Of a stretch of 64,000 nt of DNA, positions 3,856 through 60,110 are shown in pieces. Made by a program: the position numbers and the translations under genes. Source of the DNA: Chloroflexia bacterium (GTDB lineage Bacteria; Chloroflexota; Chloroflexia; DTKN01); NCBI GenBank assembly GCA_034433695.1, contig DAOUAK010000007.1, forward strand, positions 498 to 64,497, read 5' to 3'. Within the stretch, counting starts at the first letter, position 1, and every line of letters begins with the position of its first letter. Below the pieces are notes generated by a model. The model did no database searches. It was not told the DNA's origin and saw only the letters and a list, made by a program, of their open reading frames with translations.

Positions 3856-4872
3856 TTGGGCAAACGGTGGCAGCGGTGGGGTGGTCTCGCACTGCGCTGG
3901 GCCCTCCGGCTTCTCGGACCGGCCCTCCTGGTCTATATCCTCTGGAGCAACCGCGACGAACTGACCCTGGCCGGGGAAACGCTGCGTCGGGTGCAGTGGT
4001 TCCCCTTGGTGCTGGCCTTTGTGCTGGTCTTTCCCTTTGTCCTGCTCAAGGGCTGGCGCTGGCAGGTCATCCTGAAGGACCTGGGGCAGGACGTCCCCTG
4101 GAAGCGGCTTACCTTCTACTATGCCCTGGGCATCTTCCTGGGCGCCGCCGTGCCGGGGCAGGCCGGCGATTTCCTGAAAGCCTGGTACCTCAAGGAGGAC
4201 GGCTATGACCTGGGGGCCGCCTTCCTGAGCACGGTGGTGGACCGGCTGTTCGATATGCTCATGATGGGCCTCCTGGCCCTGAGCGGGCTATACATCCTCC
4301 TGCGCCTGGCCTCGGCCCCGACGCTCCTCCTCGTCCTGGGCCTCATGCTGGCCGGCATCGTCCTCTTCCTGAGCCTCCTCCTGGACCGGCGCTGGCGCAA
4401 CTGGTTGATCGAACGGGTGCTGCGTTATATCATCCCGGCGGCGGTGCGGCGCGTCCTGCGCGAATACAACGTCCGGGCCTACCTGGATCACTTTTTCCTG
4501 AGTTGGCGGAACGTAGCCCTGGGGACGGCCATCTCCCTCCTCTCTTTCTCTACTACTTTTTTCCGCCTGTGGCTGCTCATCCCGGCGCTGGGGAAGACGC
4601 TACCGGTCGAAACCTTTGTCCCCACGATGGCCCTGATGGGGCTGGCCAGCCTCCTTTCGGTGGCCGGCCTGGGGACGCGGGAAAGCGTCCTCCTGGCCAT
4701 CCTGGGGATACCGGCCCTGACCTACCCGGCCGTCTGGTCGCGGGGGGAAATCCTCAGCCTCTCCGCCCTGATCCTCTGCCTGGGTCTGGAAAACCTGGTG
4801 CTCGGCCTGCCGCTCTACCTCCTGCGTCCGCTGGGGAATCGGGGCGAAACCTACAGAGGGGGGACGTTCTAA
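3856..4872 (+). CDS. flippase-like / lysylphosphatidylglycerol-synthase-TM-like polytopic membrane protein (UPF0104-like)
   Basis: 338 aa with about 8 hydrophobic helices. Contains a PGQAGDFLKAWYL-type motif typical of flippase-like domain proteins that pair with DPM1-like GT2 genes. Starts 17 nt after the GT2 stop. Confidence 0.65.
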   Translation: MGKRWQRWGGLALRWALRLLGPALLVYILWSNRDELTLAGETLRRVQWFPLVLAFVLVFPFVLLKGWRWQVILKDLGQDVPWKRLTFYYALGIFLGAAVPGQAGDFLKAWYLKEDGYDLGAAFLSTVVDRLFDMLMMGLLALSGLYILLRLASAPTLLLVLGLMLAGIVLFLSLLLDRRWRNWLIERVLRYIIPAAVRRVLREYNVRAYLDHFFLSWRNVALGTAISLLSFSTTFFRLWLLIPALGKTLPVETFVPTMALMGLASLLSVAGLGTRESVLLAILGIPALTYPAVWSRGEILSLSALILCLGLENLVLGLPLYLLRPLGNRGETYRGGTF

Positions 4873-5891
4873 CGTTCAACGACGGTCAGGGAATCCCCTG
4901 CCCGTCGGGCAATCTCCCGGCGCAGGCGTAGCGTGCTCCAGGGGGAAAGGGGCGGGGAGAGGAGGCGGGTCAGTTCCCGGAGCGACACCTGACGCAGGCG
5001 CTGGACGGCCCGGCGCTCCGGTCGGAGCGAGGGCAGCATCCGGAATGCGGCCAGCCGGCCACGCCAGATTTCATGCTTCCCACTCACGACTCCGTAGGCA
5101 CATGCGGCCAGGTCATAGGCCAGAATCAGGGGAGCGTAGCGCAGCCACAGGCCGGCCGGCAGGTTCAGGTACAGCACCAGCCAGCGGTTGCGGGCCAGGT
5201 AAAAGGCCTTGAAGGGAGAATCCTCCCCGCCGGTAGCCGAGTAGATGTGGCGGACGATGGCTCCAGGGGAGAGGAGGCACCTCCACCCGGCCAGCCGGGC
5301 CCGCCAGGCCAGGTCCACATCCTCCAGGTAGGCGAAGAATTCGGGACGGAAAAGCCCCACCTGCTCCAGCATGGCCCGACGCAGAAGGGCCGCCCCACCG
5401 CTGGGGCCGAAGATTTCCTGCGGTCTATCCGGCAGTTCCTCCCGCCGCCGGCCGAGCCAGAGGTCCAGCGCCACTCCATCCCACTGCATCCGGATGCCGG
5501 CCGAGGCCACAAACTCCGGCCAGCGGGCGAAGACGAGCACCCCCCCCACCATGCCCACGCGCTCGTCCTGCCCGGCCGTTTCCACGAGCGCCTCCAGAAA
5601 ACGGGGTTCGGCCTGGGTATCGTTGTTCAGGAGGACGAGGAGATCTCCCCGGGCCGCCGCGATTCCGGAATTTACGCCCTCGGCAAAGCCCAGGTTGCGC
5701 GAATGGACGAGCAGGCGCACTTTGGGAAAATGCTCGGCCACCCATTGGGGCGAGCCGTCGGTGGAGGCGTTGTCCACCAGGATGGTCTCAAAGGCGGGGA
5801 AAGTCTGCCGGGAGAGTGCTTCCAGGCAGGGGCCAAGGAAAGGCCGGCCGTTCCAGTTGACGATGATGACCGAGCAGCAGGGGGAACTCAC
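4869..5891 (-). CDS. GT2 family glycosyltransferase
   Basis: Sits in the C-terminal part of the 700-aa ORF. Motifs SVIIVNWNG, VDNASTDGS, LNNDT, YLEDVDLAWR. GTG start at 5891 overlaps the M20 stop (GTGA). The region upstream of that in the same frame is a GC-rich spurious extension. Confidence 0.8.
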   Translation of the reverse strand: MSSPCCSVIIVNWNGRPFLGPCLEALSRQTFPAFETILVDNASTDGSPQWVAEHFPKVRLLVHSRNLGFAEGVNSGIAAARGDLLVLLNNDTQAEPRFLEALVETAGQDERVGMVGGVLVFARWPEFVASAGIRMQWDGVALDLWLGRRREELPDRPQEIFGPSGGAALLRRAMLEQVGLFRPEFFAYLEDVDLAWRARLAGWRCLLSPGAIVRHIYSATGGEDSPFKAFYLARNRWLVLYLNLPAGLWLRYAPLILAYDLAACAYGVVSGKHEIWRGRLAAFRMLPSLRPERRAVQRLRQVSLRELTRLLSPPLSPWSTLRLRREIARRAGDSLTVVER

Positions 5892-7246
5892 TCCGGCAGG
5901 CCCTCCGCCAGGTGGCCCAGCAAGACGGCGACGTGGACGATGCCCCGCTCCAGGTCGCCCAGGCGCACGTTCTCGTTCGCCCCGTGAACCTGGGAACCGG
6001 GATGGCCGATGCCCAGCCCGACCACCGGCATTCCCAATCCCTGCCCAAAGAAAAAGATCGGCCCGGAGCCGCCGGCGATGGGGAAAACGGCCGGGTTTTT
6101 CCCAAAGGCCCGTCGGGTGGCCTCCACCACGGCGCGGACGAAGGGGGCTTCGGGGGGCGTGCGGAAGGGCTGGAGCGGGGAACCCAGCACCCGAATCTGG
6201 ATGTCCCCAAAACCCTCTCGGTCCAGGTAGCAGCGTAGTTGCTCCAGCACTTCCTCCGGACGCTGCCGGGGCACCAGCCGAAAGTCCAGCCGGGCCCGGG
6301 CCGTTGCCGGTATGATGGTCCGTTCGCCCTCCCCCGTGTGTCCGCCGGCCAGGCCCGAGATGTTGCAGGTGGGGGAGTAGAACTGGCAGAGGAGAAGGGT
6401 ACTCCCGGACATCCCCTGCAGGAAAGACGGCACCTTCCAGGACTCCAGGTAATCCTTCTCCGGGAAAGGAAGCCGACGGGACTTGCGGATCTCCTCGTGG
6501 CCGGGGCCCTCCACCGCGTCGTAGAAGCCGTCTATGAGGATCTCCTCGTCCGGGCTTTTCAACCGGGAGAGGGCCCAGACCAACCGCCAGGCCGGGTTGG
6601 GGGCGATGGTGGCCCAGCCGGAGTGTAGTTCGGTGGTGGCGCCCCGCACCTCCAGTTCCACGCTGAGGAGTCCCTTCATCCCCAGGTAGAGGTGGGGCCG
6701 GCCGTCGCTGCTTACGCTCCCGCTTTCCCAGATGCAACCATCGGCCCGCAGGCGTTCGGCGTGGCCCAGGACGAACTCGGCCAGATGGGGGCTGCCCACT
6801 TCCTCCTCCCCTTCCACCAGGAAGCGCACCCCCACCGGGAGGCCGCCCTCCAGTTCCTGCCAGGCACGCAGGGCCCACAGGCGGGCCAGAAGCGTCCCCT
6901 TGTTGTCCACCGCCCCCCGGGCGTAGAGGCGGCGGCGGTACAGGCACGGCGCAAAGGGGGGAAAGCGCCACTCGCGCTCGTCGCCGGCCGGCTGCACATC
7001 ATAGTGGTCGTAGAAGAGGACGGTCGGCCGGCCCGGAAGTAGCCGCTCGGCCACGACCACCGGCGGTCCGCCGGCAGAGAGGAGTTGCACCTCCAGTCCG
7101 CAATCCTCCAGCGCACGGGCTACCCAGTCGGCGGCCGCCTTCAGATCTTCCGGCCGGCCGGCCATGCCGGGGATGGCACAGAGGCATCGCAGGTCTTCCA
7201 CCACCTCGGGCAGGTGTTTTCGGGCAAAATCTCGAAAGCGTTGCAT
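5888..7246 (-). CDS. M20 family metallopeptidase (ArgE/DapE/dipeptidase-like)
   Basis: Motifs YDHYDVQPA, GAVDNKG, EGEEEVGS, GIGHPGSQVHGANE. Likely ATG at 7246 is 7 nt after AAAGGAG; the ORF extends in frame to GTG at 7273. Confidence 0.8.
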   Translation of the reverse strand: MQRFRDFARKHLPEVVEDLRCLCAIPGMAGRPEDLKAAADWVARALEDCGLEVQLLSAGGPPVVVAERLLPGRPTVLFYDHYDVQPAGDEREWRFPPFAPCLYRRRLYARGAVDNKGTLLARLWALRAWQELEGGLPVGVRFLVEGEEEVGSPHLAEFVLGHAERLRADGCIWESGSVSSDGRPHLYLGMKGLLSVELEVRGATTELHSGWATIAPNPAWRLVWALSRLKSPDEEILIDGFYDAVEGPGHEEIRKSRRLPFPEKDYLESWKVPSFLQGMSGSTLLLCQFYSPTCNISGLAGGHTGEGERTIIPATARARLDFRLVPRQRPEEVLEQLRCYLDREGFGDIQIRVLGSPLQPFRTPPEAPFVRAVVEATRRAFGKNPAVFPIAGGSGPIFFFGQGLGMPVVGLGIGHPGSQVHGANENVRLGDLERGIVHVAVLLGHLAEGLPE

Positions 7247-7273
7247 GGCTGTGCTCCTTTCAGAACCCGGCAC

Positions 7274-7759
7274 CTAGCGGGCGGCCGGAGGGATGTCCGG
7301 CCCCTCCCTCTGACGTTCGCGCAGGCTGCGTAAAAGCTGCGTCCGGATGATCTCACGCTCACGACGGGCCCGCCGCTCCTCCGGGGTGCGATCGAGGACC
7401 ATCTGCACCGTCTTCACCAGGGCTATCGGGCTGAACGGCTTGGTGATATACTCGTCGGCTCCCAGTTGCCATCCCTGGATGATGTCGGAATCCTGCACCA
7501 GGGCCGTGAGCACAACCACCGGGATATCCTGAAAAGCCTTGTTCTGGCGCAGACGACGCAAAACCTCCCAGCCGTCCAGCCCCGGGCCCAACATAATGTC
7601 CAGAATGACGAGGTCCGGCTGTTCCTCGGCCACCCGCTCAAGGGCTTCCTGGCCGCTGGTGGCGGTGATCACTTCGTGGTTTTCCAGCCGCAGGTTGACC
7701 TCGATCAACTTGAGGATGGGGTGTTCGTCTTCAACGACCAGAATTCGGCTCATGTCCAT
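7274..7759 (-). CDS. single-domain response regulator (REC)
   Basis: ILVVEDE, DLVILDIML, DGWEVL and TKPF motifs in 161 aa. Its stop abuts the start of the M20 gene. Confidence 0.85.
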   Translation of the reverse strand: MDMSRILVVEDEHPILKLIEVNLRLENHEVITATSGQEALERVAEEQPDLVILDIMLGPGLDGWEVLRRLRQNKAFQDIPVVVLTALVQDSDIIQGWQLGADEYITKPFSPIALVKTVQMVLDRTPEERRARREREIIRTQLLRSLRERQREGPDIPPAAR

Positions 7760-9134
7760 CTCCTGTCGCGGATGGGGAGGGTGGGCAACGGGCGATCAGG
7801 TCCTCTACGCAGGCAGAAAACTGCTTCAGGGAGAACGGCTTCAGGAGAAAGGCATCAATATGTAGCCGGAAGGCGCGTTCCTCATCTTCGGCATCGGTGG
7901 AGAGAAGAAGGATGGGCTGGTGCCGGAGTTCCGGGATGGCCCGCAACTGTCGGCAGAGGTCCCAGGCGGAGCCGTCTTCCTGCCAGGCATCCAGGATAAT
8001 GAGCGAGGGGACAGAGGAGCGGACGGAAGACAGCAGTTCGCCCCCGGTGAAATAGAGGTGCACCCGCCGGCCGGCCCGCTCCAGATGCATCCGCAGGAGT
8101 TGCAGGAGGTCTCGCTCGGCCCCGGCAATGACCACCTCGCAGGGCCATGGGCGCCCCCGTCGTTCCATCTCCGGGGACAGGGGGCGAGCGGGAGGAACGC
8201 GCCGGTCCACGACATAGGTGCTCCCCGGCATCCGCTTGGCCAGGTGTTTCATCTCCGCCGCCAGTCGGCCCATCTCGTCCAGGCTGGAAAAAGCACGGCG
8301 GACGTTGGTCACCACGCCGATGGAGATGGTCATCAGAGGAAAGCGATGGGGCACCCCATGCCGGTCATAGCCCCGCAGATAACCCTGTTCCAGGTCGGAC
8401 GGGTCGTAGAGGGCGGGGATGGCGGCATCGAAACGTTCGGTCAGGGTTTTGCAGATCGCTTCCACCTGTTCCGGCCGGGCGATAATGGCGAAATCGTCCC
8501 CACCGATATGGCCGATGAAATCGTCCGGCGTGCCTTTCTCGGCCACCGCCTCCTGGATCAGGCGGGCCAGCAGGCGGATGGCCTCATCGCCGCGTACAAA
8601 GCCGTAGGCGTCGTTGAAAGCCTTGAAGTTGTCCATATCCACGTAAAGCAAGGCCAGAGGTGCCCCGCTCTGAAGGCGGTAACGCAACTCTTCTTCCAAC
8701 AGGCGGTTGCCCGGAAGTCCGGTCAGCGGGCTGCGCACCGGAATCTCCCTGGCCCGCCGCAGGAGGGCACGGATGCGGGCCAGGAGTTCGTCCAGGTCGA
8801 AAGGTTTGGTCACATAGTCGTCGGCCCCGCTTTCAAATCCGGAGAGTTTGTCCCCCAGCGCCGAACGGGAAGTCAGCATAAGGATGGGTACGTGGCCGAT
8901 GCGGGTATCGTTGCGCAGTTGCCGACAGACCTCGAAGCCGTCCATCTGCGGCATCATCACGTCTACCAGAATGACGTCCGGCACGCTCTCCTGGGCCATC
9001 GAGATGGCTTCGGCCCCGTTCCCGGCCAGGGCTACGCGGTATCCGGCCTTCTCCAGGAAGAGGCGCAAAAGTTCCCGAACTTTCGGATCGTCGTCGGCAA
9101 CGAGGATGGTGGCCTTTTCGGTTTCCATCTTCAA
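7731..9134 (-). CDS. response regulator with REC, GGDEF-like domain (degenerate GGDDF) and a C-terminal receiver-like domain
   Basis: N-terminal REC (VADDD, ILVDVMMP, DGFE, TKPF). GGDEF fold region (LTGLPGNR, LLYVDMDNFKAFND, RGDEAI, GGDDF). C-terminal REC-like segment with ILDAW but a weak acidic pocket. Start overlaps the PfkB stop (TTGA). Confidence 0.8.
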   Translation of the reverse strand: MKMETEKATILVADDDPKVRELLRLFLEKAGYRVALAGNGAEAISMAQESVPDVILVDVMMPQMDGFEVCRQLRNDTRIGHVPILMLTSRSALGDKLSGFESGADDYVTKPFDLDELLARIRALLRRAREIPVRSPLTGLPGNRLLEEELRYRLQSGAPLALLYVDMDNFKAFNDAYGFVRGDEAIRLLARLIQEAVAEKGTPDDFIGHIGGDDFAIIARPEQVEAICKTLTERFDAAIPALYDPSDLEQGYLRGYDRHGVPHRFPLMTISIGVVTNVRRAFSSLDEMGRLAAEMKHLAKRMPGSTYVVDRRVPPARPLSPEMERRGRPWPCEVVIAGAERDLLQLLRMHLERAGRRVHLYFTGGELLSSVRSSVPSLIILDAWQEDGSAWDLCRQLRAIPELRHQPILLLSTDAEDEERAFRLHIDAFLLKPFSLKQFSACVEDLIARCPPSPSATGDGHEPNSGR

Positions 9135-10072
9135 CTCACCAACCGCTGGTAGAGCAGTTCCAGGCAGAGGTCGCTGCGCACCGTCTCCAGCGATTGGGCG
9201 GTCAACGCGGCGGCCGAGACGCCCAACCAGACCGCCTCGTCCAGGGGGAAATGGTTGACCAGGCCGTAGATGATGGCCGCGGTCTGGGCATCGGCCGCTC
9301 CGGTCGGGTCCACGACATCGGCGCGCACGGTCGGGATGTAGCCGTTTTGTTCCCGGCTGGCATAGGCCACCCCCTGCTGCCCCAGGGAGATGACCACCAC
9401 CTTCACGCCGGCGGAAACGAGTTGTCGGGCAGCATCGGCCGCTTCCCGGGAGGAGGAGATGGTCAGTCCGGTCAGTGCCTCGGCCTCCACCGCTCCGGCC
9501 GTCAGGAGGTCAATATGCTCCAGATGGTCCCGGTAACGGCGGGCCAGTTCAAAGGAGACCGGATCCAGGCAAAAGGGCACTCCGTACTTCTGGGCCAGGC
9601 GCATGGCCGTCTCGACGGCCGGCCTGGGGGTATTGGCGTCCACCACCACCATACGGGCCTGGCGGAAAAGCCGCCGGCGGTCGTAGATGTAGCGCGGAGT
9701 CAGTTCGGACAGGATGGCCGTATCGTCCACGGCAGCGGAGAGGTTTCCTTCGCCGTCGACCAGGGCCACATAGGAGGCCGTGCGTCCGTCGCGCAGGAAA
9801 AGCACCTGGCTCACATCCACCCCGGTGCGGCCGGTATGTTTGACGACCTGATGGCCGAAGGGGTCGCGGGCCACCACCGTCAGGAGGGCGGTGCGCAATC
9901 CCAGGCGGGCCAGGTTCTCGGCGATATTGCGGGCTACCCCTCCCACGGTGATACGTACCCGGCCCGGATTGGAGGTGGACGGGTGAATCCGGCCGGCCAC
10001 ATGCCCCTTGATGTCCAGGCAGGCCGCCCCGATGACCACGATTTCGGGATTCCATGGGTCCATCGCCGCCAT
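9131..10072 (-). CDS. PfkB family carbohydrate/nucleoside kinase (ribokinase-like)
   Basis: 313 aa. Motifs VVIGAACLDIKG, GGVARNIAENLARLG, DPTGAADAQ, and a GAGD-type anion hole at the C-terminus. Confidence 0.85.
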   Translation of the reverse strand: MAAMDPWNPEIVVIGAACLDIKGHVAGRIHPSTSNPGRVRITVGGVARNIAENLARLGLRTALLTVVARDPFGHQVVKHTGRTGVDVSQVLFLRDGRTASYVALVDGEGNLSAAVDDTAILSELTPRYIYDRRRLFRQARMVVVDANTPRPAVETAMRLAQKYGVPFCLDPVSFELARRYRDHLEHIDLLTAGAVEAEALTGLTISSSREAADAARQLVSAGVKVVVISLGQQGVAYASREQNGYIPTVRADVVDPTGAADAQTAAIIYGLVNHFPLDEAVWLGVSAAALTAQSLETVRSDLCLELLYQRLVS

Positions 10073-10083
10073 CCTCCTCCTGC

Positions 10084-10111
10084 ATTATACCACAGGAAGC
10101 GCCAGACGCAA
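10084..10111 (-). promoter_or_regulatory. promoter TTGCGT-16-TATAAT (minus strand) for the PfkB/REC/M20/GT2 operon
   Basis: Minus-strand read is TTGCGTCTGGCGCTTCCTGTGGTATAAT followed by GCAGGAGGAGG and ATGGCGGCGATGG, the PfkB kinase start. Extended -10 is TGgTATAAT. Confidence 0.55.
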
Positions 10112-10143: not shown

Positions 10144-10172
10144 TTGCGCAAGGTCCGGTGATGGTGTACAAT
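10144..10172 (+). promoter_or_regulatory. promoter TTGCGC-17-TACAAT for the NTPase-kinase cassette
   Basis: TTGCGC at 10144-10149 and TACAAT at 10167-10172. It shares the 19-mer CCGGTG(R)TGGTGTACAATG with the promoter at 2885-2908. The implied transcription start of about 10180 favours TTG 10212 as the translation start. Confidence 0.5.
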
Positions 10173-10211
10173 GAATTTATCTATAGCCGTGGTTGGTGGA
10201 GGCCGGAAGCG

Positions 10212-12131
10212 TTGGCTTTCGTTCGTAATCCGTTCTTCCATCGGCATCGCATCACCGATCTGGCCTACTTTTACGGCCGGCAGCGGGAACTGGAGCACCT
10301 CTGTGGGGCCCTCCTCACCGGCCAGTGCCGGGCCATCGTCGGCGAACGCAAGATAGGCAAAAGTTCGCTTCTGACCTCCCTGACCACTCCTTCCATCCGG
10401 CGGCGTTTTGGATTGGAAGCCGAACGTTACCTGTTCGCCTACCTCGACCTGGAGGGGATGGTCTCGGCCAGCCGCAGCGAATTCTGGCAGGAGGTGCTGG
10501 AGCAGTATTCCTCCGGCCTGCGGGAAGAGGACCTGCGTCTCCTTTTCCACAGCACGGCCCGGGAAACCGAAGTCCGCTTCATGCGGATTCGTCGCCTCCT
10601 TCGCCAGGCCGGCGATGCCGGTTACCGCCCCGTCCTCATCCTGGACGAATTCGAGGCCCTGGCCCAGAACCCCGACTTTGGCCCCGACTTTTACGGCGAA
10701 CTGCGCAGCCTGGCCGGTGAGGTCGGCGTGGTCTATATCACCGCCTCCCGACGTAGCCTCTACGAACTCACCTACCGGCACTCCGGCACCCTTTCCTCCC
10801 CTTTCTTCAACATCTTCACCGAACTCCCGTTGGGGCTGATGACCGAGGAGGAGGTCCAGGCGCTCCTGGAGGGGATTTCCCGTCTGGGCGGCAGCCCGGG
10901 CCTGGGTTCGGAGGAAGTCCGGCTGGCCCTGGAGTGGGCCGGCCCGCACCCCTTCTTTGCCCAGGTGGCCGGCTATCACCTCTGGGAACTGGGGGCCGGA
11001 AAGCGCACCCTCCTTCCCGCCGAACGCGAACAGGCCTGGCGTCGCTTCCTGGCCGAGGCCGAGGACCACTACCGCTACTCCTGGGCGCAACTGGACGAGA
11101 CCGAACGTGTGGGCGTCCTTCACCCCGAACGGGTGCCCGAGGAGGTACAGCGGCGGCTATTGCGCCGGGGCGTGTTGCGGGTGGTGGAGGGCGAGTTGCG
11201 ACCCTTCTCCCGGCCCTTTGCAGAATTTGCCCGTCGCCAGGAGCAGGCGACCCCCTCGACCCCATCGTTGACCACCACCCTCGGCGAGGACCTGACCGGC
11301 CGGAGCATCGGCCCCTATCGCATCCTGGAACGCTGTGGGCAAGGGGGCATGGCCGAGGTCTACAAGGGCTACCACCCGCTCATTGACCGTTACGTGGCCG
11401 TCAAAGTGCTTCGGCCGGCCCTGGCTTCCGATGAAGAGTTCCGTCGCCGTTTCCAGCGCGAAGCCACCGCCGTCGCCGCCATGCGCCATCCCAACATCGT
11501 CCAGTTGTACGACTTTGGCCAGATCGGGGAGCGTTTCTATATGGTCATGGAATACATCGAAGGCGGCACCTTACGAGACCGCCTTCGGGCCCTCCCCGAA
11601 GGAAACCGGCGACTTCCCCCGGCCGAGGTGGTGGCCATCGTTCGAGGCATCGCCGCCGCTCTCGATTACGCCCACCAGCGGGGCATCGTCCACCGCGACG
11701 TCAAACCGGCCAACGTGATGTTCACCCGCGACGGCGACCCTGTGCTGACCGACTTTGGCATCGCCCGGATGCTGGGGGAAGGCTCCGTGACGATGGCCGG
11801 CGTGAGCATCGGCACTCCGGACTATATGTCCCCCGAACAGGCCCGGGGAGAACCGGCCACTCCGGTCTCCGACATCTATTCCCTGGGCGTGATGGTCTAT
11901 GAGATGCTCACCGGACGGCGTCCCTTCAGCGCCGAAACGCCCCTGGGGGTTATCGCGCAGCACCTCCAGGGGGACTTTCCTTCCCCTCGCAATGTGGACC
12001 CGTCTTTTCCCGAGGCCCTGGAAGGCGTCCTGCGCCGGGCTCTGGCCAAGGAACCTGCCGCTCGCTACTCCACGGCCGGAGAATTGGCCCGTGAATTGCA
12101 GGCGGCGGTGGAACAGGATATTTCCCATTGA
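10212..12131 (+). CDS. P-loop NTPase (STAND/AAA_16-like) fused to C-terminal Hanks-type Ser/Thr protein kinase
   Basis: N-terminal part: FYGRQRELEHL, Walker A GERKIGKSSL, Walker B VLILDEFE, helical lid and winged helix. C-terminal part: GQGGMAEVYKG, AVKVL, HRDVKPANV, DFG, TPDYMSPE. Likely start is TTG 10212 after GGTGGAGG; alternative in-frame ATG at 10161. The 10008 ORF start is an antisense-overlap artefact. Confidence 0.8.
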   Translation: MAFVRNPFFHRHRITDLAYFYGRQRELEHLCGALLTGQCRAIVGERKIGKSSLLTSLTTPSIRRRFGLEAERYLFAYLDLEGMVSASRSEFWQEVLEQYSSGLREEDLRLLFHSTARETEVRFMRIRRLLRQAGDAGYRPVLILDEFEALAQNPDFGPDFYGELRSLAGEVGVVYITASRRSLYELTYRHSGTLSSPFFNIFTELPLGLMTEEEVQALLEGISRLGGSPGLGSEEVRLALEWAGPHPFFAQVAGYHLWELGAGKRTLLPAEREQAWRRFLAEAEDHYRYSWAQLDETERVGVLHPERVPEEVQRRLLRRGVLRVVEGELRPFSRPFAEFARRQEQATPSTPSLTTTLGEDLTGRSIGPYRILERCGQGGMAEVYKGYHPLIDRYVAVKVLRPALASDEEFRRRFQREATAVAAMRHPNIVQLYDFGQIGERFYMVMEYIEGGTLRDRLRALPEGNRRLPPAEVVAIVRGIAAALDYAHQRGIVHRDVKPANVMFTRDGDPVLTDFGIARMLGEGSVTMAGVSIGTPDYMSPEQARGEPATPVSDIYSLGVMVYEMLTGRRPFSAETPLGVIAQHLQGDFPSPRNVDPSFPEALEGVLRRALAKEPAARYSTAGELARELQAAVEQDISH

Positions 12132-15100
12132 GCGTTCCCGGAGCCGTTCCGAAAATGTATCGTAAGAGTATCCAATCCGGCCTCCTCGAAGGTATCCTTC
12201 TGGCCCTGACCCTGGGCCTGGTCATCGTCGAGGATGAGGTCGTCCGCCTCCTGCCAGGGGAAAGGGCGACTCCGCTCCTGCCTCGCGACCTGGTACGCAC
12301 CTTTGCCCTAATTCTGGCGGCTATCTTGCTCCTCTTCCTGGGCATTCTGGCGGCGATGCGGGTGCGGCCGGCCCGACCCAGAGAAGGGTTTCTGGCCGGT
12401 GCTACAAGCGGTTGGGTGGCCGGATGGGTGGTGACCACCTTTCTCTTCTTCCCCCTGGTCGTCCTGCGTGAGGGGTTGCCTCCCTATCAGCAGGTCCTCC
12501 TTCGGCCCGAGATCGTCGCGGATGAGGCCCGGCTGGCTCAGGTGGCCTGGTCCGCCTGGCAACTCTCCGTCGGTGTGGCCTTCCTTGTTCCCCTTGCAGG
12601 CCTTGGTTTGGGCGGTATCGAGGGCCTGGCCTACGCCTGGTTGCGGCGTAACGTCGCATCCTTCCAGGAAGGACCCGCGCTTCCGCTTCTTTTGAGGGAA
12701 ATCCGAGGTGGCTGGACCCTCCCGGTCGAACGCGACGAGCACATCCTGCGGGCCGGCCTGTGGGGTGGGACGATGGTGGGCACTTTCCTGGCCCTGGAAG
12801 TGCTCCTTTTGACCTTGCAGGCCCTATCCGCCGTTCCCTTGCCGGCCAACCGGAGCGCCCTCCTGGAGCAGGGCCGACTTCTGGCGCTGGCTGGTCCGCT
12901 GGCCGTCCTGGTGCCCCCGGCCTTTCTCCTGTGGGGCGGCAGCGGCATCCTGCTTCTCAAGGACCCGCCGACCCGTTTCCGTTCCCGTCTGGCAGCCGGC
13001 ACCCTTTCCGGTGCCGTGGCCGGGACCTTCCTTTCCACCCTGGCCCTCCTTCCGGCCCTGAACGCCGGTCTGGCCCTCCTGCCACTTTGGCTCCGGTCCG
13101 GTGGAGAGCGTCCGCCCTTCCTTCCCGAGCAATTGGCCCTCCTGGCCCGCAACTTTTTCTTCCTCTACCTCCCGATTCCCCTGGCCTTACTTTTCCTCTC
13201 CGCCCTGGCCGGCTTTCTCCTGGGCCTGCCCTTTGCCCTGCTCAGCGCCTACCTCTGGCCGCGCCGGCCGGTGGATCGGGCCATCCGGCTGGTCGGACGG
13301 TTGCGCCAGCAGCCGGAGACTCTTCTGCCGGAACTGTACGCCCTTTTCCAGCACGACCGTCAGGCCGGCCCGGTGCTTCGCCATCTGGCCTACCTTTTCC
13401 AGAAGGAGAAAGACCCCGGCCTGGCTACCCTGGCCGCCGCCTATCAGGCCCTCTATGAGCCTTTCACCTATCCCGCCGAGTCCCTGGAGGAGATTCTCGA
13501 GACCAGCGCCACCGTCCTGGCCGCCACCCCCGAACGGCGCTGGAGCCGCGAGATCGGGGAACTGCACCGTTTCCTCGATGAGGGGTTGCAGGCCCGCAAC
13601 CTCCTGCACCTGGCAGCCATCCGTCCCCTTCCGGAAGAGCACACTTCCTCCCTGCCACCTCCTCTGATCCGGGTTTGGGAACGCCTTTCTGCGGTCGTCC
13701 ATGAGGTGAAAAAGGCCCAGCGGGTGGACGACCCCAACGGGCGGGCCATCTACCTGAACCGTGCCCTGGAGGAGGTGGCGGCGGCCCGGCGGCTCTCCGA
13801 GGAAGATATGGCCTTTCCTCACGGCCGCCGGCCGGCTACCTTTTACCCGGAACAACGAGTCCTGGCCGTCCTCCTTCCCCACTGGCAGGCCATCCTCCAC
13901 GAAGCCCTCCGCGACCTGCGCGGACGGGCTCTCCTGCGGGCCGAACTGGTCACCCGCCGGATGTCCTGCCAGCCCCGCCTGAAGTTGCACCTGCGTCTGA
14001 CCAACGCGGGGCTGAATGTGGCCGAGCGGGTGCGTCTCTACCTTCTCCCCGGGCCGGACTACCAGTTGACGGAGGAAAGCGAGGCCCGCCTGGAGGTGCT
14101 TCTGCCCGGCGAGGAACGGACGGTGGAACTGGCGCTGGAGCCGCGGAATTCCCAGCGGATGCGCGTGGTGGTCCAGATCCTCTACGACGACGCCGTGGAC
14201 GAAAACCGGGAGATGGTCCTGGCCGATGAGGTGGTCTTCCTGGCCGAGGAGCGTCCCTTCCAGCGGATTTTCCCCATTCCCTACGTGACCGGCACCCCGC
14301 TGAAGACGAAGGAGATGTTCTTCGGTCGGCAGGACGTTTTCACCTACGTCCGCGAACACCTCCTGGGAGCCTACCAGAACAACATCATCGTCCTCCACGG
14401 CCAGCGGCGCACCGGCAAGACCTCGGTGCTCTACCGCCTGTCCGAGGTCCTCCAGGATACCCATTACTGCGTCTTGCTCGACATGCAGGGTATGGCCGTC
14501 CGCAACGAGGCCGAACTTTTTTACACCTTCAGCGACGAGATCGCGTATGCTCTCGGGCGGGAGGGAATTCCGGTACAACTGCCCCCACGCCAGGAGTACG
14601 AGGCCCAACCGGAGTTCACCTTCCGTTCCCGCTTCCTTCGCAACCTCTATCCGGCCCTGGGGGAAAAACGCCTCCTGCTCATGTTCGACGAGTTCGAGGA
14701 ACTTCAGGGGCTGGTGGAGGCCGTCCATCTGAGGGCCGACATTTTCCCCTTCTTGCGCAACCTGATGCAACATGAGGAAAAGGTGGATTTCCTCTTCTCC
14801 GGGACCCACAAACTGGAGGAACTGGCGGCCGAGTACTGGTCGATTCTCTTCAATATTGCCACCTATAAAAAGATTTCTTTCCTTGAACCGGACGAGGCCC
14901 GCCGCCTCATCACCGAGCCGGTAGCACCCTATGGGATGGAATACGACTCGCTGGCGGTGGAACAAATCCTCCGCGTTACGGCCGGCCATCCCTTCCTGAC
15001 CCAACTCGTGTGCCATGAAATGGTGGCCTACCATAACGAGGTGGAGCGCAGTTACCTCACCGTGGCCGACGTGGATGCGGTGCTGGAGCGCATCGCCGAG

Positions 15101-15412
15101 CGGGGCGAGGCCCACTTCAAATACATCTGGTCGGAAGCCGATCCCCAGGAACGGGCAGCGATGCTGGCCCTGGCCGAACTGCTGGCCTATAGCGAAGGAG
15201 CCTCGGCCGAGGAAATTTCCGCCCTCTCCGCCCGGCGTGGCCGGCCGCTGGAGGGCGAAGCCGCCCTTTCCGCCCTCCTCCGTCTGGAATCCCGCGACAT
15301 TGTGGTCCGCCTGTCCCCGGGCTCCGAGCGTTTCCGTTTCTATATAGACCTGGTCCGCCGCTGGATCGCCGTGAACCCGCAACTGGCCGATCAGGTGTCC
15401 ACCCGCCCATAA
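12128..15412 (+). CDS. polytopic membrane protein (about 10 TM) with C-terminal paralogous P-loop NTPase (STAND/AAA_16-like) and winged helix
   Basis: N-terminal ~380 aa with about 10 hydrophobic helices. Then a cytoplasmic helical region and a beta-rich segment (RLEVLLPGEERTVELALEPRN). Then FFGRQDVF, Walker A GQRRTGKTSV, Walker B LLLMFDEFEE. Start is TTG 12128 (TTGA overlap with the upstream stop) or ATG 12155. Confidence 0.75.
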   Translation: MSVPGAVPKMYRKSIQSGLLEGILLALTLGLVIVEDEVVRLLPGERATPLLPRDLVRTFALILAAILLLFLGILAAMRVRPARPREGFLAGATSGWVAGWVVTTFLFFPLVVLREGLPPYQQVLLRPEIVADEARLAQVAWSAWQLSVGVAFLVPLAGLGLGGIEGLAYAWLRRNVASFQEGPALPLLLREIRGGWTLPVERDEHILRAGLWGGTMVGTFLALEVLLLTLQALSAVPLPANRSALLEQGRLLALAGPLAVLVPPAFLLWGGSGILLLKDPPTRFRSRLAAGTLSGAVAGTFLSTLALLPALNAGLALLPLWLRSGGERPPFLPEQLALLARNFFFLYLPIPLALLFLSALAGFLLGLPFALLSAYLWPRRPVDRAIRLVGRLRQQPETLLPELYALFQHDRQAGPVLRHLAYLFQKEKDPGLATLAAAYQALYEPFTYPAESLEEILETSATVLAATPERRWSREIGELHRFLDEGLQARNLLHLAAIRPLPEEHTSSLPPPLIRVWERLSAVVHEVKKAQRVDDPNGRAIYLNRALEEVAAARRLSEEDMAFPHGRRPATFYPEQRVLAVLLPHWQAILHEALRDLRGRALLRAELVTRRMSCQPRLKLHLRLTNAGLNVAERVRLYLLPGPDYQLTEESEARLEVLLPGEERTVELALEPRNSQRMRVVVQILYDDAVDENREMVLADEVVFLAEERPFQRIFPIPYVTGTPLKTKEMFFGRQDVFTYVREHLLGAYQNNIIVLHGQRRTGKTSVLYRLSEVLQDTHYCVLLDMQGMAVRNEAELFYTFSDEIAYALGREGIPVQLPPRQEYEAQPEFTFRSRFLRNLYPALGEKRLLLMFDEFEELQGLVEAVHLRADIFPFLRNLMQHEEKVDFLFSGTHKLEELAAEYWSILFNIATYKKISFLEPDEARRLITEPVAPYGMEYDSLAVEQILRVTAGHPFLTQLVCHEMVAYHNEVERSYLTVADVDAVLERIAERGEAHFKYIWSEADPQERAAMLALAELLAYSEGASAEEISALSARRGRPLEGEAALSALLRLESRDIVVRLSPGSERFRFYIDLVRRWIAVNPQLADQVSTRP

Positions 15413-19869: not shown

Positions 19870-20470
19870 CTAAAGGGCGGGGTTCTGGTGGCGACCCGAC
19901 CGACTCTCTCGGACTCTCGGCTGTCGGCCCCATCCGCAGGAAACCGGATCAGGCAGATAGTTCTCCGGGTTGTTGGCCCGCCGTTTCCTCTCCACCTGCC
20001 GCTGCAACCGCCGTACCTCTCCTTGTCCGCCCTTGAGCGGCGTGGCCAGGTCCACCTGCGCCCCCCAATCTTCCCCGGCCAGCCCGAACACCCACGGACC
20101 GGGGTCTACCCCGACCCGGCCTGTGCCCACCGTGTTTTTTCGGCTTCCGGTAGGGCTGCCCCTCGCAGATGAGTTGCGCCCAGTAGTGCACCTTCCCGTT
20201 CAGCCTCCGGCGGATCAAACGCACGTCCTTGACCCGGCTGGAAAGCCCATGCGCGACCACCGCGTCGCCCTTGGGGATAACGGCCCGAAGCCGCAAGCCC
20301 ATCCATTCTACGTAACCATCGCGCCAGCGGATGCCGCTCCCGTTCGTCTTGCCCTCCACGCTGTCGAACTGGTTGCGCCCCTTGAAGCGGGGCCGGCCCC
20401 TCTTGCCCACGGCATACCCCCGAACCGCCCGGAAGGCGCGGGTGGCCGTATAATGTAAGTGCCAATTGCC
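19870..20470 (-). pseudogene. tnpB: IS200/IS605-family tnpB (OrfB) relic, 5'- and 3'-truncated with a frameshift
   Basis: One minus frame reads GRPRFKGRNQFDSVEG...GIRWRDGYVEWMGLRLRAVIPKGDAVVAHGLSSRVKDVRLIRRRLNGKVHYWAQLICE (the TnpB PrFKsK...GkWyvs region). A second minus frame continues with VGVDPG...LKGGQGEVRRLQRQVERKRRANN (RuvC-I plus the RlqRk.sRkkk.S.N motif). N-terminal ~90 aa and the C-terminal RuvC/zinc-finger half are absent. Confidence 0.6.
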
Positions 20471-20500
20471 GCCCACCTTCCCACCCCCTTTCCCCCTGCG

Positions 20501-20528
20501 TTTTCCCCCGCCCAAGGGCGGGGGAAAA
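20501..20528. repeat. 28-bp perfect palindrome TTTTCCCCCGCCCAAGGGCGGGGGAAAA at the tnpB-relic/GH-fragment junction
   Basis: Arms TTTTCCCCCGCCC and GGGCGGGGGAAAA are exact reverse complements. Lies between the two 5'-truncated divergent gene fragments. Confidence 0.7.
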
Positions 20529-20583
20529 CAGCCGCCCTTCCTCCCCATTCCTGAAGGAAGGGGCATCCGGGCGGCAAAATCTG

Positions 20584-21354
20584 GTGAAAGAGAAGGATGC
20601 CCCGCTGGACTTCTTTTCGTGGCATCTCTACTCCAACGACCCGCAGGATCGGGCCCGCGCGGCCAGATTTTACCGTCAGGAGTTGGACGGTCTCGGCTTT
20701 CAGACCACCCAGATGCACGTCACCGAATGGAATACGGACATCCGGCAAACAGGGGACCAGAGCGCCGAGGCATTTGCCCTGCGCGTCGGCGGCAAAGGGG
20801 CGGCCATCCTGACGGCGGCGTGGATAGCCATGCAGGAAAACGGCGTCGCCGAGGCGACCTTTTATCGCGGTCCAGACCCGGACATGAATGCGCCTACTTT
20901 CCACGGTCTTTTCTTTGCCAACGGTCAGCCCAAGCGGGTGGCGCTGGCCTTCTCGCTGTGGGCGAAGATGGCGTCCCATCCGCAGCGGCTGGCGGTCTCC
21001 AGTACCCCTGAGGGGGCGCTCTGGTTGCTGGCGGGGCAAGATCCGGCAGGGGAAATCGCTCTCCTTATCGCCAATCCGACCGATAGGCCGGTGAAGTACA
21101 CGATCTCCGGCGTGGATGTGGGCCGGCCGACGCTCTTCCAGGTGAGCGATGCCGATGAGCAGATTCGATCGCCGATGGTCACCGGAAATGTGAGAGATCG
21201 GCGGCAATACGGTCCAGATGGTAACCATCGCCAAGTGATCTTCAGAACCGTTTTACCTCATGGAAAGGTAAGATTTTTCATGAGGCAAAACGGGACTTGC
21301 CAAAGCTGCGATTTTGTGGTAGTGTTTCCTGGGGCGCCCTTTGTGTATGAATAG
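20584..21354 (+). pseudogene. 5'-truncated clan GH-A glycoside hydrolase fragment (C-terminal part of the TIM barrel)
   Basis: Begins at the strand-6 motif DFFSWHLY and carries the strand-7 nucleophile motif HVTEWN. The N-terminal ~200 aa of the barrel are missing. Adjacent to the tnpB relic. Confidence 0.5.
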
Positions 21355-21635: not shown

Positions 21636-22691
21636 ATGAATGTCCGCGAGATTCGTGAAGGTAGCGAGTGGAACCGCCTGCTGCTTTCGTTTCCCCACCC
21701 CCACATCCTTCAGTCCTTCGAATGGGGAGAGGTCAAACGGGCCACCGGATGGGCGCCCAGGCGACTTCTCCTGGAAGAAGGAGGGCAGGCACGGGCGGCC
21801 GCGCTGATTCTGCGGCGGGAAGTACCCTTTCTGGGGGCTCCGGTTCTCTATGTGCCCAAAGGCCCTCTTCTGGCGGAGGACGGGTCGGCCCTCCTGGAAG
21901 CGGCCCTGGCATGGCTGGAGGAAGAAGCCCGTCGGGCGCGGGCCATCTTTATCAAAATCGACCCCGACATCGTCGCCGACGATGCCGCCGCCCTGGAGGT
22001 GCTCCGTCGGCGCACCTGGCGGCGGGGGGAGGATGTACAGTTTCGCAATACGATTCTGGTGGACCTCCGGGCCGAGGAAGAGGCCCTCCTGGGGCGGATG
22101 AAGCCCAAGACCCGCTACAACATCCGCCTGGCCGAACGGCGGGGGGTGCGGGTGCGGGAAGGGACAGCGGCCGACCTGGAGGCTTTCTACGAACTCTACC
22201 GGGAGACGGGCCGGCGCGACGGCTTCCTCACCCGGCCCTATCCCTACTACCGGCAGGTCTGGCAGACCTTCCTGGAGGCGGGGTGGGGGCGTCTGTTTCT
22301 GGCCGAGCACGAGGGGGAACTGCTGGCCGGCCTCTTTCTCCTGCGCTTCGGCCCCTGCGCCTGGTATATGTACGGCGCCTCCTCCGGCCGCAAGCGGGAG
22401 CACATGCCCAACCATCTCCTCCAGTGGGAGGCGATGCGCTGGGCCAGGGCGGCCGGCTGCACGACCTACGATTTCTGGGGAGCGCCCGACCAACTGCATC
22501 CGGAGGACCCGCTCTGGGGTGTGTACCGCTTCAAGGCAGGCTTTGGCGGGCGCTTTGTCTCCCGCCTCGGTGCCTACGATTTCGTCGTCCGGCCGGCCCT
22601 GTACCTGGCCTTCTCCTGGGCCGTGCCGCGCCTCCTCGCGCTCTGGCGACGACTGCGGGGAGAGCCGACGTTGGGGCAGGCCGGGCCTTGA
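21636..22691 (+). CDS. FemAB family peptidoglycan interpeptide-bridge aminoacyltransferase
   Basis: HILQSFEWGEVK at the N-terminus, KTRYNIRLAERRGV, YMYGASS and FKAGFGG motifs are typical of FemABX/lipid II aminoacyltransferases. Confidence 0.75.
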   Translation: MNVREIREGSEWNRLLLSFPHPHILQSFEWGEVKRATGWAPRRLLLEEGGQARAAALILRREVPFLGAPVLYVPKGPLLAEDGSALLEAALAWLEEEARRARAIFIKIDPDIVADDAAALEVLRRRTWRRGEDVQFRNTILVDLRAEEEALLGRMKPKTRYNIRLAERRGVRVREGTAADLEAFYELYRETGRRDGFLTRPYPYYRQVWQTFLEAGWGRLFLAEHEGELLAGLFLLRFGPCAWYMYGASSGRKREHMPNHLLQWEAMRWARAAGCTTYDFWGAPDQLHPEDPLWGVYRFKAGFGGRFVSRLGAYDFVVRPALYLAFSWAVPRLLALWRRLRGEPTLGQAGP

Positions 22692-22811
22692 GGTCTCACG
22701 TTCAAGCGTCTAGAAATGGGATGATTTCCCCGTTGATTCAACGGATACTCGGCAGAAAAGGCTTGTACGCCTGCGTTCCAGAGGGATGAACGGGTACAGC
22801 GGAGGCCCGAG

Positions 22812-23348
22812 ATGCCGCATAACCTCCTTCTGACCGGCCGGCCGGGCATCGGCAAGACCACCGTCATCCGGCGTGTCCTGGAGAGGCTGCCACCGATCCG
22901 GCTGGGCGGCTTTACCACGGCCGAGATCCGAGGGCCGCACGGCCGGCTTGGTTTCCGGGCCACCGCCCTCGGCGGCCCCGAGATCGTCCTGGCCCACGTG
23001 GAACAGGCCGGCCCCTATCGGGTGGGGGCCTATGGGGTAGACATAGCCACCTTCGAGCGGGTCATCCTGCCCTTCCTGGACCCACGACGGGAGGATGTGG
23101 AACTCTTCGTCGTGGATGAGATCGGCAAGATGGAGTGCTTTTCGGCGCTCTTCCAGGCCCGGGTGCGGCAACTTCTGGACGACCCGCGTCCGGTTCTGGG
23201 AAGTGTGGCCCTGCGCGGGCCGGCCCTGATCGAAGAAGTCCACCGCCGGCCGGACGTGGAACGGGTGGAAGTGACGCCGTCCAACCGCGCCGGCCTGCCC
23301 GAGGTGATCGCCGCCCGGTTGCAGCGCTGGCTGAGGGGCATGGAATAG
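22812..23348 (+). CDS. THEP1/NTPase_1 family nucleoside-triphosphatase
   Basis: 178 aa. Walker A LLTGRPGIGKTT, Walker B ELFVVDEIGKME. The size fits the MJ1559-type NTPase. Confidence 0.75.
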   Translation: MPHNLLLTGRPGIGKTTVIRRVLERLPPIRLGGFTTAEIRGPHGRLGFRATALGGPEIVLAHVEQAGPYRVGAYGVDIATFERVILPFLDPRREDVELFVVDEIGKMECFSALFQARVRQLLDDPRPVLGSVALRGPALIEEVHRRPDVERVEVTPSNRAGLPEVIAARLQRWLRGME

Positions 23349-23358
23349 GAAGAAGGCG

Positions 23359-24034
23359 ATGCGACCGTACCTGCTCGCCCTGCTTCTGGTCCTTTTCCCG
23401 CTCTTCGGTGGAGCCTGCGGAGGAACGCCCGCAACCCCGACGAGCGCGACGGAGGAAGTTACCCTGCCGCCGCCCCGGACCCAGGGGGGAATGAGCCTGA
23501 CGGAGGCACTGGCCCATCGGCGCTCGGTCCGCTCTTATACCGAACAAAGCCTGACCTGGGAAGAAATCTCGCAACTTCTCTGGGCGGCCCAGGGCGTCAC
23601 CGACCCACGGGGCTTTCGCGCGGCCCCCTCGGCCGGAGCCCTCTACCCGCTGGAGGTGTACCTCGTGCTGCCCGAGGGCTGGTATCACTACCGGCCGGCC
23701 GACCATCGCCTGGAAGTACGGGGGCGGGGCGACCTCCGGCGAGACCTCTGGATGGTCGGGCTGAACCAGGAGGCACTGCTCCGGGCGCCGGCACTCTTTG
23801 TCATCACCGGGGTGGTCTCCCGCACGGCGGCCAAGTATGGGGATCGGGCGGAGCGTTACGTCTTTCTGGAGGCCGGCCACGCCGCGCAGAACCTGCTCCT
23901 CCAGGCCACCGCCCTGGGCCTCCGCCGTCCCCATCGGCGCCTTTGACGACGCAGGAGTGCGCCGGGTCTTGGGGTTATCTCCGGCGGAGACCCCCCTTTA
24001 CCTGATCCCGGTGGGAAGGCCGGGGGAACCGTAA
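23359..24034 (+). CDS. nitroreductase family lipoprotein, apparently frameshifted near 23917-23922
   Basis: Lipobox LFGGAC; nitroreductase motifs RRSVRSYTEQ, ALYPLEVY, LEAGHAAQNLLLQATALGL. The C-terminal continuation SAVPIGAFDDAGVRRVLGL...PVGRPGEP is in another frame (ORF 23798-24034). This is either a -1 shift at a C-run or a sequencing error. Confidence 0.55.
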
Positions 24035-24066: not shown

Positions 24067-24139
24067 CGCGGCTGGGGCGACTCGAACGCCCGACCACCTA
24101 CTCCGGAGGCAGGTGCTCTATCCACTGAGCTACAGCCGC
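24067..24139 (-). tRNA. tRNA-Arg (anticodon CCG)
   Basis: Minus strand reads GCGGCTG TA GCTC AGTGGATA GAGC A CCTGC CTCCGGA GTAGG TGGTC GGGCG TTCGAGT CGCCC CAGCCGC G. Cloverleaf with 7-bp acceptor stem, U33 and anticodon CCG. CCA is not encoded. Confidence 0.85.
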
Positions 24140-29422: not shown

Positions 29423-29461
29423 GCCGGAGACCGGGCCGAGGATCTGACAGGTTCGGCGAAA

Positions 29462-30670: not shown

Positions 30671-30674
30671 TCCG

Positions 30675-33155: not shown

Positions 33156-33173
33156 GCGGCGAGGAGGAGCACA

Positions 33174-34790: not shown

Positions 34791-34973
34791 GCAGAGGCGC
34801 GCTGGGGGATGCCCCTGCTCGTCTACCGGAGACCGGCGGCCCGGCCTGACCGTCCGGAGGACGGGAGACTCTGATGACCCATTAACGTTTCTCCAACGAC
34901 CCTCTAAGACCGGTTCTCTACTTTTCCCATGAAATCATCTCAGGATGAATACGGATAAGGTGTGAGGTGACGT

Positions 34974-37571: not shown

Positions 37572-37598
37572 CATCTTGACCATGAGAAAATGGGGCGT

Positions 37599-37627
37599 TT
37601 GCGCGATAGCCCGGCAGCGGTTATAAT
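37599..37627 (+). promoter_or_regulatory. promoter TTGCGC-17-TATAAT upstream of the P-type ATPase
   Basis: TTGCGC at 37599-37604 and TATAAT at 37622-37627. Confidence 0.5.
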
Positions 37628-37690
37628 AGGTCAACGTTCAAACCGGGTCGCCCTGGAGCGCCCTGAATCCGGCAAGAGGAAGACCGTCCG

Positions 37691-60101: not shown

Positions 60102-60110
60102 CTGACGAGA

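Follow-up and report, generated by a model that had tools for sequence, protein, structure and literature searches.

What does a response regulator do if its GGDEF domain reads GGDDF and no histidine kinase is encoded beside it? The question is raised by a 64,000-nucleotide stretch of DNA from a Chloroflexia bacterium (GenBank assembly GCA_034433695.1, contig DAOUAK010000007.1, positions 498 to 64,497; hereafter "the window," G+C content ~65%). Five tightly packed minus-strand open reading frames (ORFs) at positions 4869-10072 of the window encode a PsuK-like kinase of the PfkB family, a REC-GGDDF-REC response regulator, a single-domain REC response regulator, an M20-family protein, and a family 2 glycosyltransferase (GT2). 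These genes probably represent an orphan two-component output module, in which a phosphorylation-activated diguanylate cyclase of the GGDDF clade and its partner single-domain receiver would be co-transcribed with the PsuK-like kinase and, in this sub-lineage, with the M20 and GT2 genes.

The GGDDF domain and its clade

The regulator and its parts occupy the following positions:

7731-9128, minus strand: REC-GGDDF-pseudoREC response regulator, 465 amino acids (aa), with two REC matches and one GGDEF match in Pfam
8763-9107, minus strand: N-terminal receiver (aa 8-122) with a predicted phosphorylatable pocket (D12, D13, D56, T86, and K108)
8199-8732, minus strand: GGDEF domain of the GGDDF clade (aa 133-310)
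8490-8504, minus strand: GGDDF motif (GGT GGG GAC GAT TTC; aa 209-213)
7791-8138, minus strand: C-terminal pseudo-receiver (aa 331-446), the second Pfam REC stretch, with a receiver fold in its secondary structure

The central domain scores well above the cut-offs of both curated models (PF00990, 64.1 bits versus 23.8; TIGR00254, 66.6 bits versus 37.4). A reading made from the sequence alone had correctly identified the GGDDF motif but took it to mean that a metal-binding Glu was replaced and that the domain was probably catalytically impaired or altered. Alignment with PleD of Caulobacter crescentus does not bear this out. Residues D327, K332, N335, and D344 of PleD correspond to D164, K169, N172, and D181, all of which are invariant in the family, and the GGEEF motif of PleD aligns with GGDDF. 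Asp164 and Asp166 are both conserved, and the metal-binding D164 and the acidic third motif residue, D211, are invariant. The metal-binding, lysine, and guanine-specifying residues are intact, and only the RxxD I-site, present in PleD, is missing: the search for it five residues upstream of the GG pair found TPDD (aa 200-203), with position 200 variable in the family. The fourth motif position is Asp212, not Glu, so that the sequence departs from the pattern [G/A/S]G[D/E]E[F/Y] of active cyclases. In addition, the domain has an extended conserved hairpin (Y241..D245..G249..D255-R256), and PGS occupies the site where canonical cyclases carry GRN.

The predicted fold supports the domain architecture. 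The AlphaFold2 model of the regulator has a mean predicted local distance difference test score of 85.9, with mostly 74-97 per 10-residue block in the GGDEF domain. Its best Foldseek matches are WspR, PleD, DgcR, and isolated GGDEF domains, such as that of GcbC (5euh; template modeling [TM] score, 0.80) and 3ign (TM score, 0.75). For the REC-GGDEF part, the closest structures are DgcR of Leptospira biflexa (6zxm; TM score of 0.68 on the target) and WspR (E value of 2.7e-24). Both are only 24-26% identical to the window protein; their motifs are canonical, they have I-sites, and a pseudo-receiver is absent from their C termini. A Cas10/mCpol-type GGDD polymerase, considered on account of the motif, was rejected, as only GGDEF models match the domain and the fold matches are all diguanylate cyclases.

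The GGDDF motif is shared by 114 of the 120 closest homologues. A domain profile search of 1.84 billion proteins returned 2,038 representatives (50%-identity clusters) at E values of ≤1e-30. The full domain was matched in all of the best 150 of these, and GGDDF was found in 135 of the 148 new representatives among them. A scan of species-representative genomes gave at least 597 matching stretches with 43-61% identity; among the matches listed are members of Clostridia, Omnitrophota, Eremiobacterota/Vulcanimicrobiota, Acidimicrobiia, Nitrospirota, Planctomycetia, Geobacterales, and Chloroflexota. The clade signature comprises D[LIM]DxFKxxNDxYGxxxGD, DF[IV]GH[IV]GGDDF, a long hairpin with invariant Tyr, Asp, and Asp-Arg residues, S[IL]SI[GA]V, AAExKxxAK, and PGSxY. 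The window domain belongs to this GH[IV]GGDDF clade, as it gives a full-length match and contains D[LIM]DxFKxxND, GH[IV]GGDDF, the DR hairpin, and PGSxY. The clade has an active-site periphery of its own, with His for Arg ahead of the GG pair, PGS for GRN, and the long hairpin with its invariant Asp-Arg. Outside Chloroflexales, most of its members either are REC-GGDDF proteins of ~310 aa or have a sensor-HAMP input, the GGDDF domain being C-terminal. Judging from these comparisons, GGDDF is a signature of the clade and not a lineage-specific lesion or a sign of decay, which corrects the annotation reflex of equating a noncanonical GGDEF motif with an inactive domain.

GSU1937 of Geobacter sulfurreducens is the sole clade member with experimental activity; the clade is otherwise essentially unstudied. 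It is a transmembrane HAMP protein that combines the Hypr serine with a GGDDF motif; its deletion lowered cyclic GMP-AMP (cGAMP) reporter activity in G. sulfurreducens, and its GGDDF domain, fused to the GacA receiver, made cGAMP and cyclic di-GMP (c-di-GMP) in Escherichia coli, with the GADDF mutant being inactive (PMC8835794). The published primer for the scarless deletion of GSU1937 encodes, in frame, VQKLIASSTPGSNY. In the G. sulfurreducens protein P0494 (436 aa), VQKLIAS is found at residue 11 and STPGSNY is found at residue 421, together with GHVGGDDF and a Ser at the base-specifying position, and because P0494 carries the exact peptide junction encoded by the primer, we identify it as GSU1937. 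P0494 surfaced in a homologue search seeded with a protein from a Geobacter metagenome-assembled genome (MAG) but not in one that started from a Geomonas protein. GSU1937 and the window domain are 46% identical over 178 residues without gaps (E value of 2e-57), an alignment that includes the long hairpin and PGSxY. The two share the clade and the GH[IV]GGDDF motif; unlike the window protein, GSU1937 has a transmembrane HAMP input and no pseudo-receiver, and it has Ser, not Asp, at the base-specifying position, owing to which it makes cGAMP besides c-di-GMP. As the window protein has Asn172 and Asp181, its expected product would be c-di-GMP.

Could the GGDDF domain instead be catalytically dead, with the protein acting as a scaffold or nucleotide receptor under the control of phosphorylation, in the manner of PelD or LapD and their degenerate GGDEF domains? 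The Glu at the fourth motif position has been described as the cross-dimer catalytic base, and the GGDDF-EAL protein PA3258 of Pseudomonas aeruginosa showed no cyclase phenotype (PMC8835794). The C-terminal half of the domain, left unaligned by the curated models, would also fit this view. However, when a GGDEF domain degenerates into a receptor, it is usually RxxD that survives and the metal and base ligands that are lost, the opposite of the pattern here, with every ligand invariant and no RxxD. About 2,000 representatives have the motif as a fixed feature, and the same-clade GSU1937 is active and loses its activity in the GADDF mutant. We therefore regard a dead domain as improbable.

Several points nevertheless weigh against an active, phosphorylation-controlled cyclase. 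The Pfam and TIGRFAM alignments stop after ~60% of the domain, covering just the first ~100 of 161-168 model positions, so the C-terminal half of the domain is divergent. The Arg of the canonical GRN contacts phosphate, and Ser stands in its place in the GGDDF clade. To our knowledge, there is no assay of any REC-GGDDF enzyme. Neither a kinase nor a c-di-GMP receptor (PilZ or riboswitch) nor a phosphodiesterase was found in the window. The activity of GSU1937 was shown in only one artificial fusion and was weaker than that of GacA (PMC8835794).

In some clade members, including REC-GGDDF proteins, the base-specifying Asp (D344 in PleD) is replaced by Ser or Asn, as would be expected if the GGDDF domain binds nucleotides in the canonical mode. 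A Hypr-like Ser or an Asn at this position is seen in the REC-GGDDF proteins of loci L020 and L064, in the HAMP-GGDDF proteins of L025, L046, and L068, and in L024 and L071. Such proteins are candidate synthases of cGAMP or another dinucleotide outside Geobacter.

Other arrangements in the clade, the first three read from the sequence and not from Pfam matches, include a histidine kinase-REC-GGDDF pair among FtsE-like, M23 peptidase, and S41 (CtpA-like) genes in Eremiobacterota/Vulcanimicrobiota (L012 to L016 and L080); a GGDDF protein with a degenerate N-terminal receiver in L027 to L030, L049, and other gut Clostridia; and, in the same gut Clostridia, placement of the GGDDF gene between genes for a very large surface protein, an Ig-like repeat protein, and an amidase-like protein. 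Tandem REC-GGDDF paralogues, 1.3-2.1 kb apart, occur in L057 and L077. A full-text literature search for "IGGDDF" gave no match, and one on Chloroflexi GGDEF regulators returned nothing relevant. The wider interest of the locus lies solely in this large, conserved, and nearly unstudied clade.

Receivers and the missing kinase

Across 117 family members, the pocket residues of the N-terminal receiver vary little or not at all, and this domain matches the D1 receiver of PleD with 97 bits. The 161-aa single-domain REC protein, which has an Arg/Glu-rich C-terminal tail, likewise retains an intact pocket (E10/D11, D54, T85, and K107). From these residues, both receivers should be phosphorylatable. 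The C-terminal receiver-like domain is different. As the sequence-only reading had noticed, it lacks the usual acidic pair, which is replaced by G336-A337 (Ser or Gly and Ala in the family), making it a pseudo-receiver. Asp380, at the acceptor position, is kept in 114 of the 117 homologues, and the window protein also has Ser410 and Lys430, although the latter is a Gln in 58 of the 117. The pseudo-receiver is found only in Chloroflexales and evolves much faster than the remainder of the regulator, and Pfam misses it in Roseiflexus.

No histidine kinase is encoded in the cluster, as had been noted, and this holds for the entire 64 kb: neither HisKA nor HATPase_c was found in any major ORF of the window, and a search for the H-box pattern there also found none. 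In other phyla, at least 17 REC-GGDDF genes sit immediately downstream of the gene for an H-box histidine kinase. The clade can thus be seen as a normal two-component output, with its Chloroflexales members as orphans, and by this comparison, the missing kinase is typical of orphan regulators and not anomalous. The suggestion that phosphorylation might come from the adjacent NTPase-Ser/Thr kinase finds no parallel in related genomes, as this neighbor is seen only in the near-identical locus L001 and is absent in L002, L086, L087, and L088.

Among the closest known parallels is the divK-pleD operon of C. crescentus, in which a single-domain response regulator is encoded beside the cyclase with no histidine kinase. 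The window cluster has the same kinase-less pairing of a cyclase gene with a single-domain regulator, and both PleD and the window protein are receiver-controlled GGDEF proteins with one true receiver and one pseudo-receiver. They differ in domain order (REC-GGDEF-pseudoREC in the window, REC-pseudoREC-GGDEF in PleD), in the motif (GGDDF versus GGEEF), in the RxxD I-site, which the window protein lacks, and in the position of the single-domain regulator gene, which is downstream in the window and upstream in divK-pleD. The overall superposition on PleD is poor (Foldseek TM score of 0.29) because of the different domain order.

These parallels suggest how the module may work. A histidine kinase encoded elsewhere in the genome would phosphorylate Asp56 of the N-terminal receiver. 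Phosphorylation would drive dimerization, the mechanism expected by analogy with DgcR and WspR, so that two GGDDF domains, each binding GTP, would meet and form c-di-GMP. The pseudo-receiver, predicted to be unable to bind Mg2+ at the usual acidic pair, probably offers a surface for dimerization or docking, a role comparable to that of the D2 adaptor domain in PleD. The single-domain receiver, whose gene is translationally coupled to that of the regulator, could also be phosphorylated by this kinase, in keeping with the relation of DivK to PleD. Across Chloroflexales, the PsuK-like kinase would be a conserved partner encoded on the transcript of the regulator, and the M20 and GT2 genes, appended in one sub-lineage, may merely share the transcript.

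Organization and conservation of the gene cluster

The other elements of the cluster are as follows:

10084-10111, minus strand: promoter-like TTGCGT-16-TATAAT with a TGn extended -10, from sequence reading and a pattern search
9131-10072, minus strand: PsuK-like PfkB-family kinase, 313 aa, or 310 aa from the second ATG at 10063, as in orthologues
7274-7759, minus strand: single-domain REC response regulator, 159-161 aa (Pfam REC, 95.7 bits)
5888-7246, minus strand: M20-family metallopeptidase or deacylase, 452 aa (Pfam Peptidase_M20 and M20_dimer)
4869-5891, minus strand: GT2 glycosyltransferase, 340 aa (Pfam Glycos_transf_2, 102 bits)

All five ORFs and their Pfam domains, each above the curated cut-off, agree with the composition originally proposed, as does the convergent end of the cluster: the GT2 stop codon overlaps that of a plus-strand LPG_synthase_TM/flippase-like gene at 4869-4872. 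The proposed chaining by 4-bp overlaps and a 1-bp gap holds only for the M20/GT2 junction, a GTGA overlap of 4 nucleotides (nt) with a GTG start for GT2. The other three junctions are a 2-nt gap between the PfkB gene and the regulator starting at ATG 9128 (a start backed by homologues), a 23-29-nt overlap between the regulator and REC genes, and a 27-nt spacer ahead of the M20 gene, which starts at ATG 7246 with an AAGGAG Shine-Dalgarno sequence ahead. A 4-nt PfkB/regulator overlap requires the alternative start TTG 9134, and the REC and M20 genes abut only with the alternative start GTG 7273. The TTG start of the regulator was rejected, as an exact-sequence look-up with it gave no match and the database protein P0241, identical to the regulator read from its ATG, starts at this ATG.

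The single promoter described upstream of the PfkB gene is present, and it occurs only once in the window, with no matches in 100 shuffles. However, its -35 element is weak, agreeing with the consensus at only 3 of 6 positions, and for this reason the promoter is missed by a generic sigma-70 scan; we retain it only as a plausible extended -10 promoter. The -10 element ends 11 nt upstream of ATG 10072 and 20 nt upstream of ATG 10063, and a transcript from this promoter would therefore have a very short leader. Terminator-like matches inside the cluster are no commoner than in shuffles. Co-transcription of all five genes may be inferred indirectly from this frequency, the spacing, and the conserved gene order.

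The whole cluster region is ~99% identical to contig JBBINT010000033 of the MAG GCA_037443735.1 (locus L001). The same five-gene order, with tight spacing, is also found in GCA_964592645.1 (L002) and GCA_964613665.1 (L087), where the regulators are 66-70% identical and the flanking genes are unrelated, with a Tex or 2-thiouracil desulfurase-like gene upstream and an RNase D gene downstream. As the five genes recur in L002 and L087 with differing flanks, their order is beyond chance. The overlapping regulator/REC arrangement is likewise present in L001, L002, and L087. In more distant relatives, only part of the cluster is seen. Locus L086 (regulator 60% identical) has the PfkB, regulator, and REC genes alone, with the REC gene directly after the regulator and ClpB then following on the opposite strand, and in Roseiflexaceae (45-55% identical) the order is Band_7-PfkB-regulator-TPR. 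In total, the PfkB-regulator pair occurs in 10 loci, with the REC gene added in 4 lineages and M20-GT2 in 3. The PfkB-regulator spacing is 0-100 nt and is kept between lineages whose regulators are just 45-55% identical. Because L086 and the Roseiflexaceae loci have the PfkB-regulator pair without M20-GT2, that pair is the conserved core of the cluster; the second receiver joined it in one sub-lineage, and M20-GT2 is found only in the closest relatives. The PfkB link is limited to Chloroflexales: none of the other ~75 loci has it, and within Chloroflexales it is not seen at L009 or L089. Locus L089 (regulator homologue 44% identical) has a PAS histidine kinase gene 0.7 kb downstream.

This distribution raises the possibility that the five genes are not one functional unit and that the PfkB, M20, and GT2 genes are metabolic or envelope genes with no more in common with the two regulator genes than their orientation and possibly a transcript, the targets of the regulators lying elsewhere. 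The absence of M20-GT2 from L086, its replacement by a TPR protein gene in Roseiflexaceae, and the 90-nt gap ahead of the M20 gene in L002 would all fit this view, and no PilZ domain, I-site-like motif, or riboswitch is tied to GT2. On the other hand, every junction in the window is tight or overlapping, and the five genes are kept together in three genomes with unrelated flanks. We consider this a serious contender, at somewhat short of an even chance.

The PfkB protein (Pfam PfkB, 177.7 bits) has E. coli PsuK as its best PDB match (7vkp, 1.6e-45), and it resembles PsuK/YeiC in giving its best NCBIfam match to this family and in having the GGxxRN and DxTGAxD motifs. It differs in having GAAD for GAGD, in having no PsuG glycosidase partner in the cluster, and in its score of 165.4 bits to the NCBIfam pseudouridine kinase (NF007355), far below the equivalog cut-off of 540. 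The motifs GG[VC]ARN and DPTGA[AGS]D are conserved in the ten regulator-adjacent PfkB orthologues (as GAAD, GAGD, or GASD). The protein can thus be assigned to the PfkB family and described as PsuK-like only.

The company of such a kinase suggests that the GGDDF domain might be active but make a different product, be it cGAMP, another cyclic or linear dinucleotide, or a nucleotide derived from a PfkB-phosphorylated nucleoside, with the PsuK-like kinase feeding or modifying the pathway. The conservation of the PfkB-regulator adjacency at 45-55% regulator identity and the clade-specific active-site periphery (the His before GG, PGS, and the D-R hairpin) are in line with this idea, as is the production of cGAMP by GSU1937, the one assayed member (PMC8835794). 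The combination of N172 and D181, however, is that of guanine-guanine specificity, not the Hypr Ser, and the PfkB link, confined to Chloroflexales, is missing at the ~75 other loci and at L009 and L089. We also know of no pathway that connects a PsuK-type kinase to a GGDEF enzyme, and altogether a different product appears improbable.

A broader reading would make the GH[IV]GGDDF clade a mechanistically distinct branch of GGDEF cyclases, in which a changed catalytic base, the loss of the I-site, the PGS phosphate loop, and the D-R hairpin could bring different chemistry or regulation and which, in Chloroflexales, became functionally coupled to the PsuK-like nucleoside or sugar kinase and the pseudo-receiver. 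If true, this unlikely reading would link nucleoside phosphorylation to second-messenger output in Chloroflexales. The Chloroflexales version, with the REC-GGDDF-pseudoREC protein beside the PsuK-like kinase, offers a testable entry to c-di-GMP signaling in its phylum, on which one full-text search found no study of this family.

Surroundings of the cluster

The M20 protein scores 327 bits to the NCBIfam model PRK06446, below its cut-off of 369, and its nearest relatives are uncharacterized dipeptidase-like subfamilies. The GT2 protein is a generic family 2 transferase of the soluble type; a reading of its sequence found neither a PilZ-like RxxxR...DxSxxG pattern nor an I-site-like motif, and no Rfam riboswitch was detected in the window. 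The view that the cluster serves regulated envelope glycosylation, as the sequence-only reading had it, thus lacks a c-di-GMP-binding element in GT2; the ArnC/flippase neighbors are seen only in L001, and M20-GT2 only in the closest relatives. As the nSTAND-Ser/Thr kinase and ArnC-like/flippase pairs flank the cluster only in L001, neither the phosphorylation input nor the glycosylation theme has comparative support. Apart from its clade, the locus is an ordinary orphan two-component module, and there is no support for a special link to envelope glycosylation.

The divergent neighbor at 10161-12131 (plus strand) encodes an nSTAND NTPase fused to a Ser/Thr protein kinase and overlaps by 4 nt the gene for a 1,094-aa nSTAND protein (12128-15412, plus strand). 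This pair is present in L001 and is not beside the cluster in other relatives.

The window is rich in glycosylation genes with or without the regulator cluster counted. Envelope-glycan genes are dense at 26688-34790, 40583-44365, and 56652-63014 and include those for two S-adenosylmethionine-dependent methyltransferases, several GT1/GT4 glycosyltransferases, three PMT_2-type proteins (one fused to NHL repeats and LysM), a GT87 glycosyltransferase, and a UDP-N-acetylglucosamine 2-epimerase.

Three long ORFs with no Pfam match, at 20308-21234 (minus strand), 21668-22789 (plus strand), and 23062-23934 (minus strand), have a third-position G+C content of 0.50-0.64, compared to ~0.8 elsewhere. They may be spurious, lying over noncoding or foreign DNA, and are adjoined by a tRNA gene at 24067-24139 (minus strand). 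An 899-aa ORF at 34935-37634 (minus strand) has a coding-like composition (third-position G+C content of 0.74) and matches no Pfam family at E values of ≤1e-5. A gene for a XerC/D-type tyrosine recombinase (46847-47746, minus strand) adjoins a tRNA gene (47880-47952, plus strand). Past the left end of the window, at positions 19121-21035 of L001, genes for a Tsp45I-type restriction enzyme and an N6/N4 methyltransferase adjoin the UvrA-like gene that lies at 5-2881 in the window.

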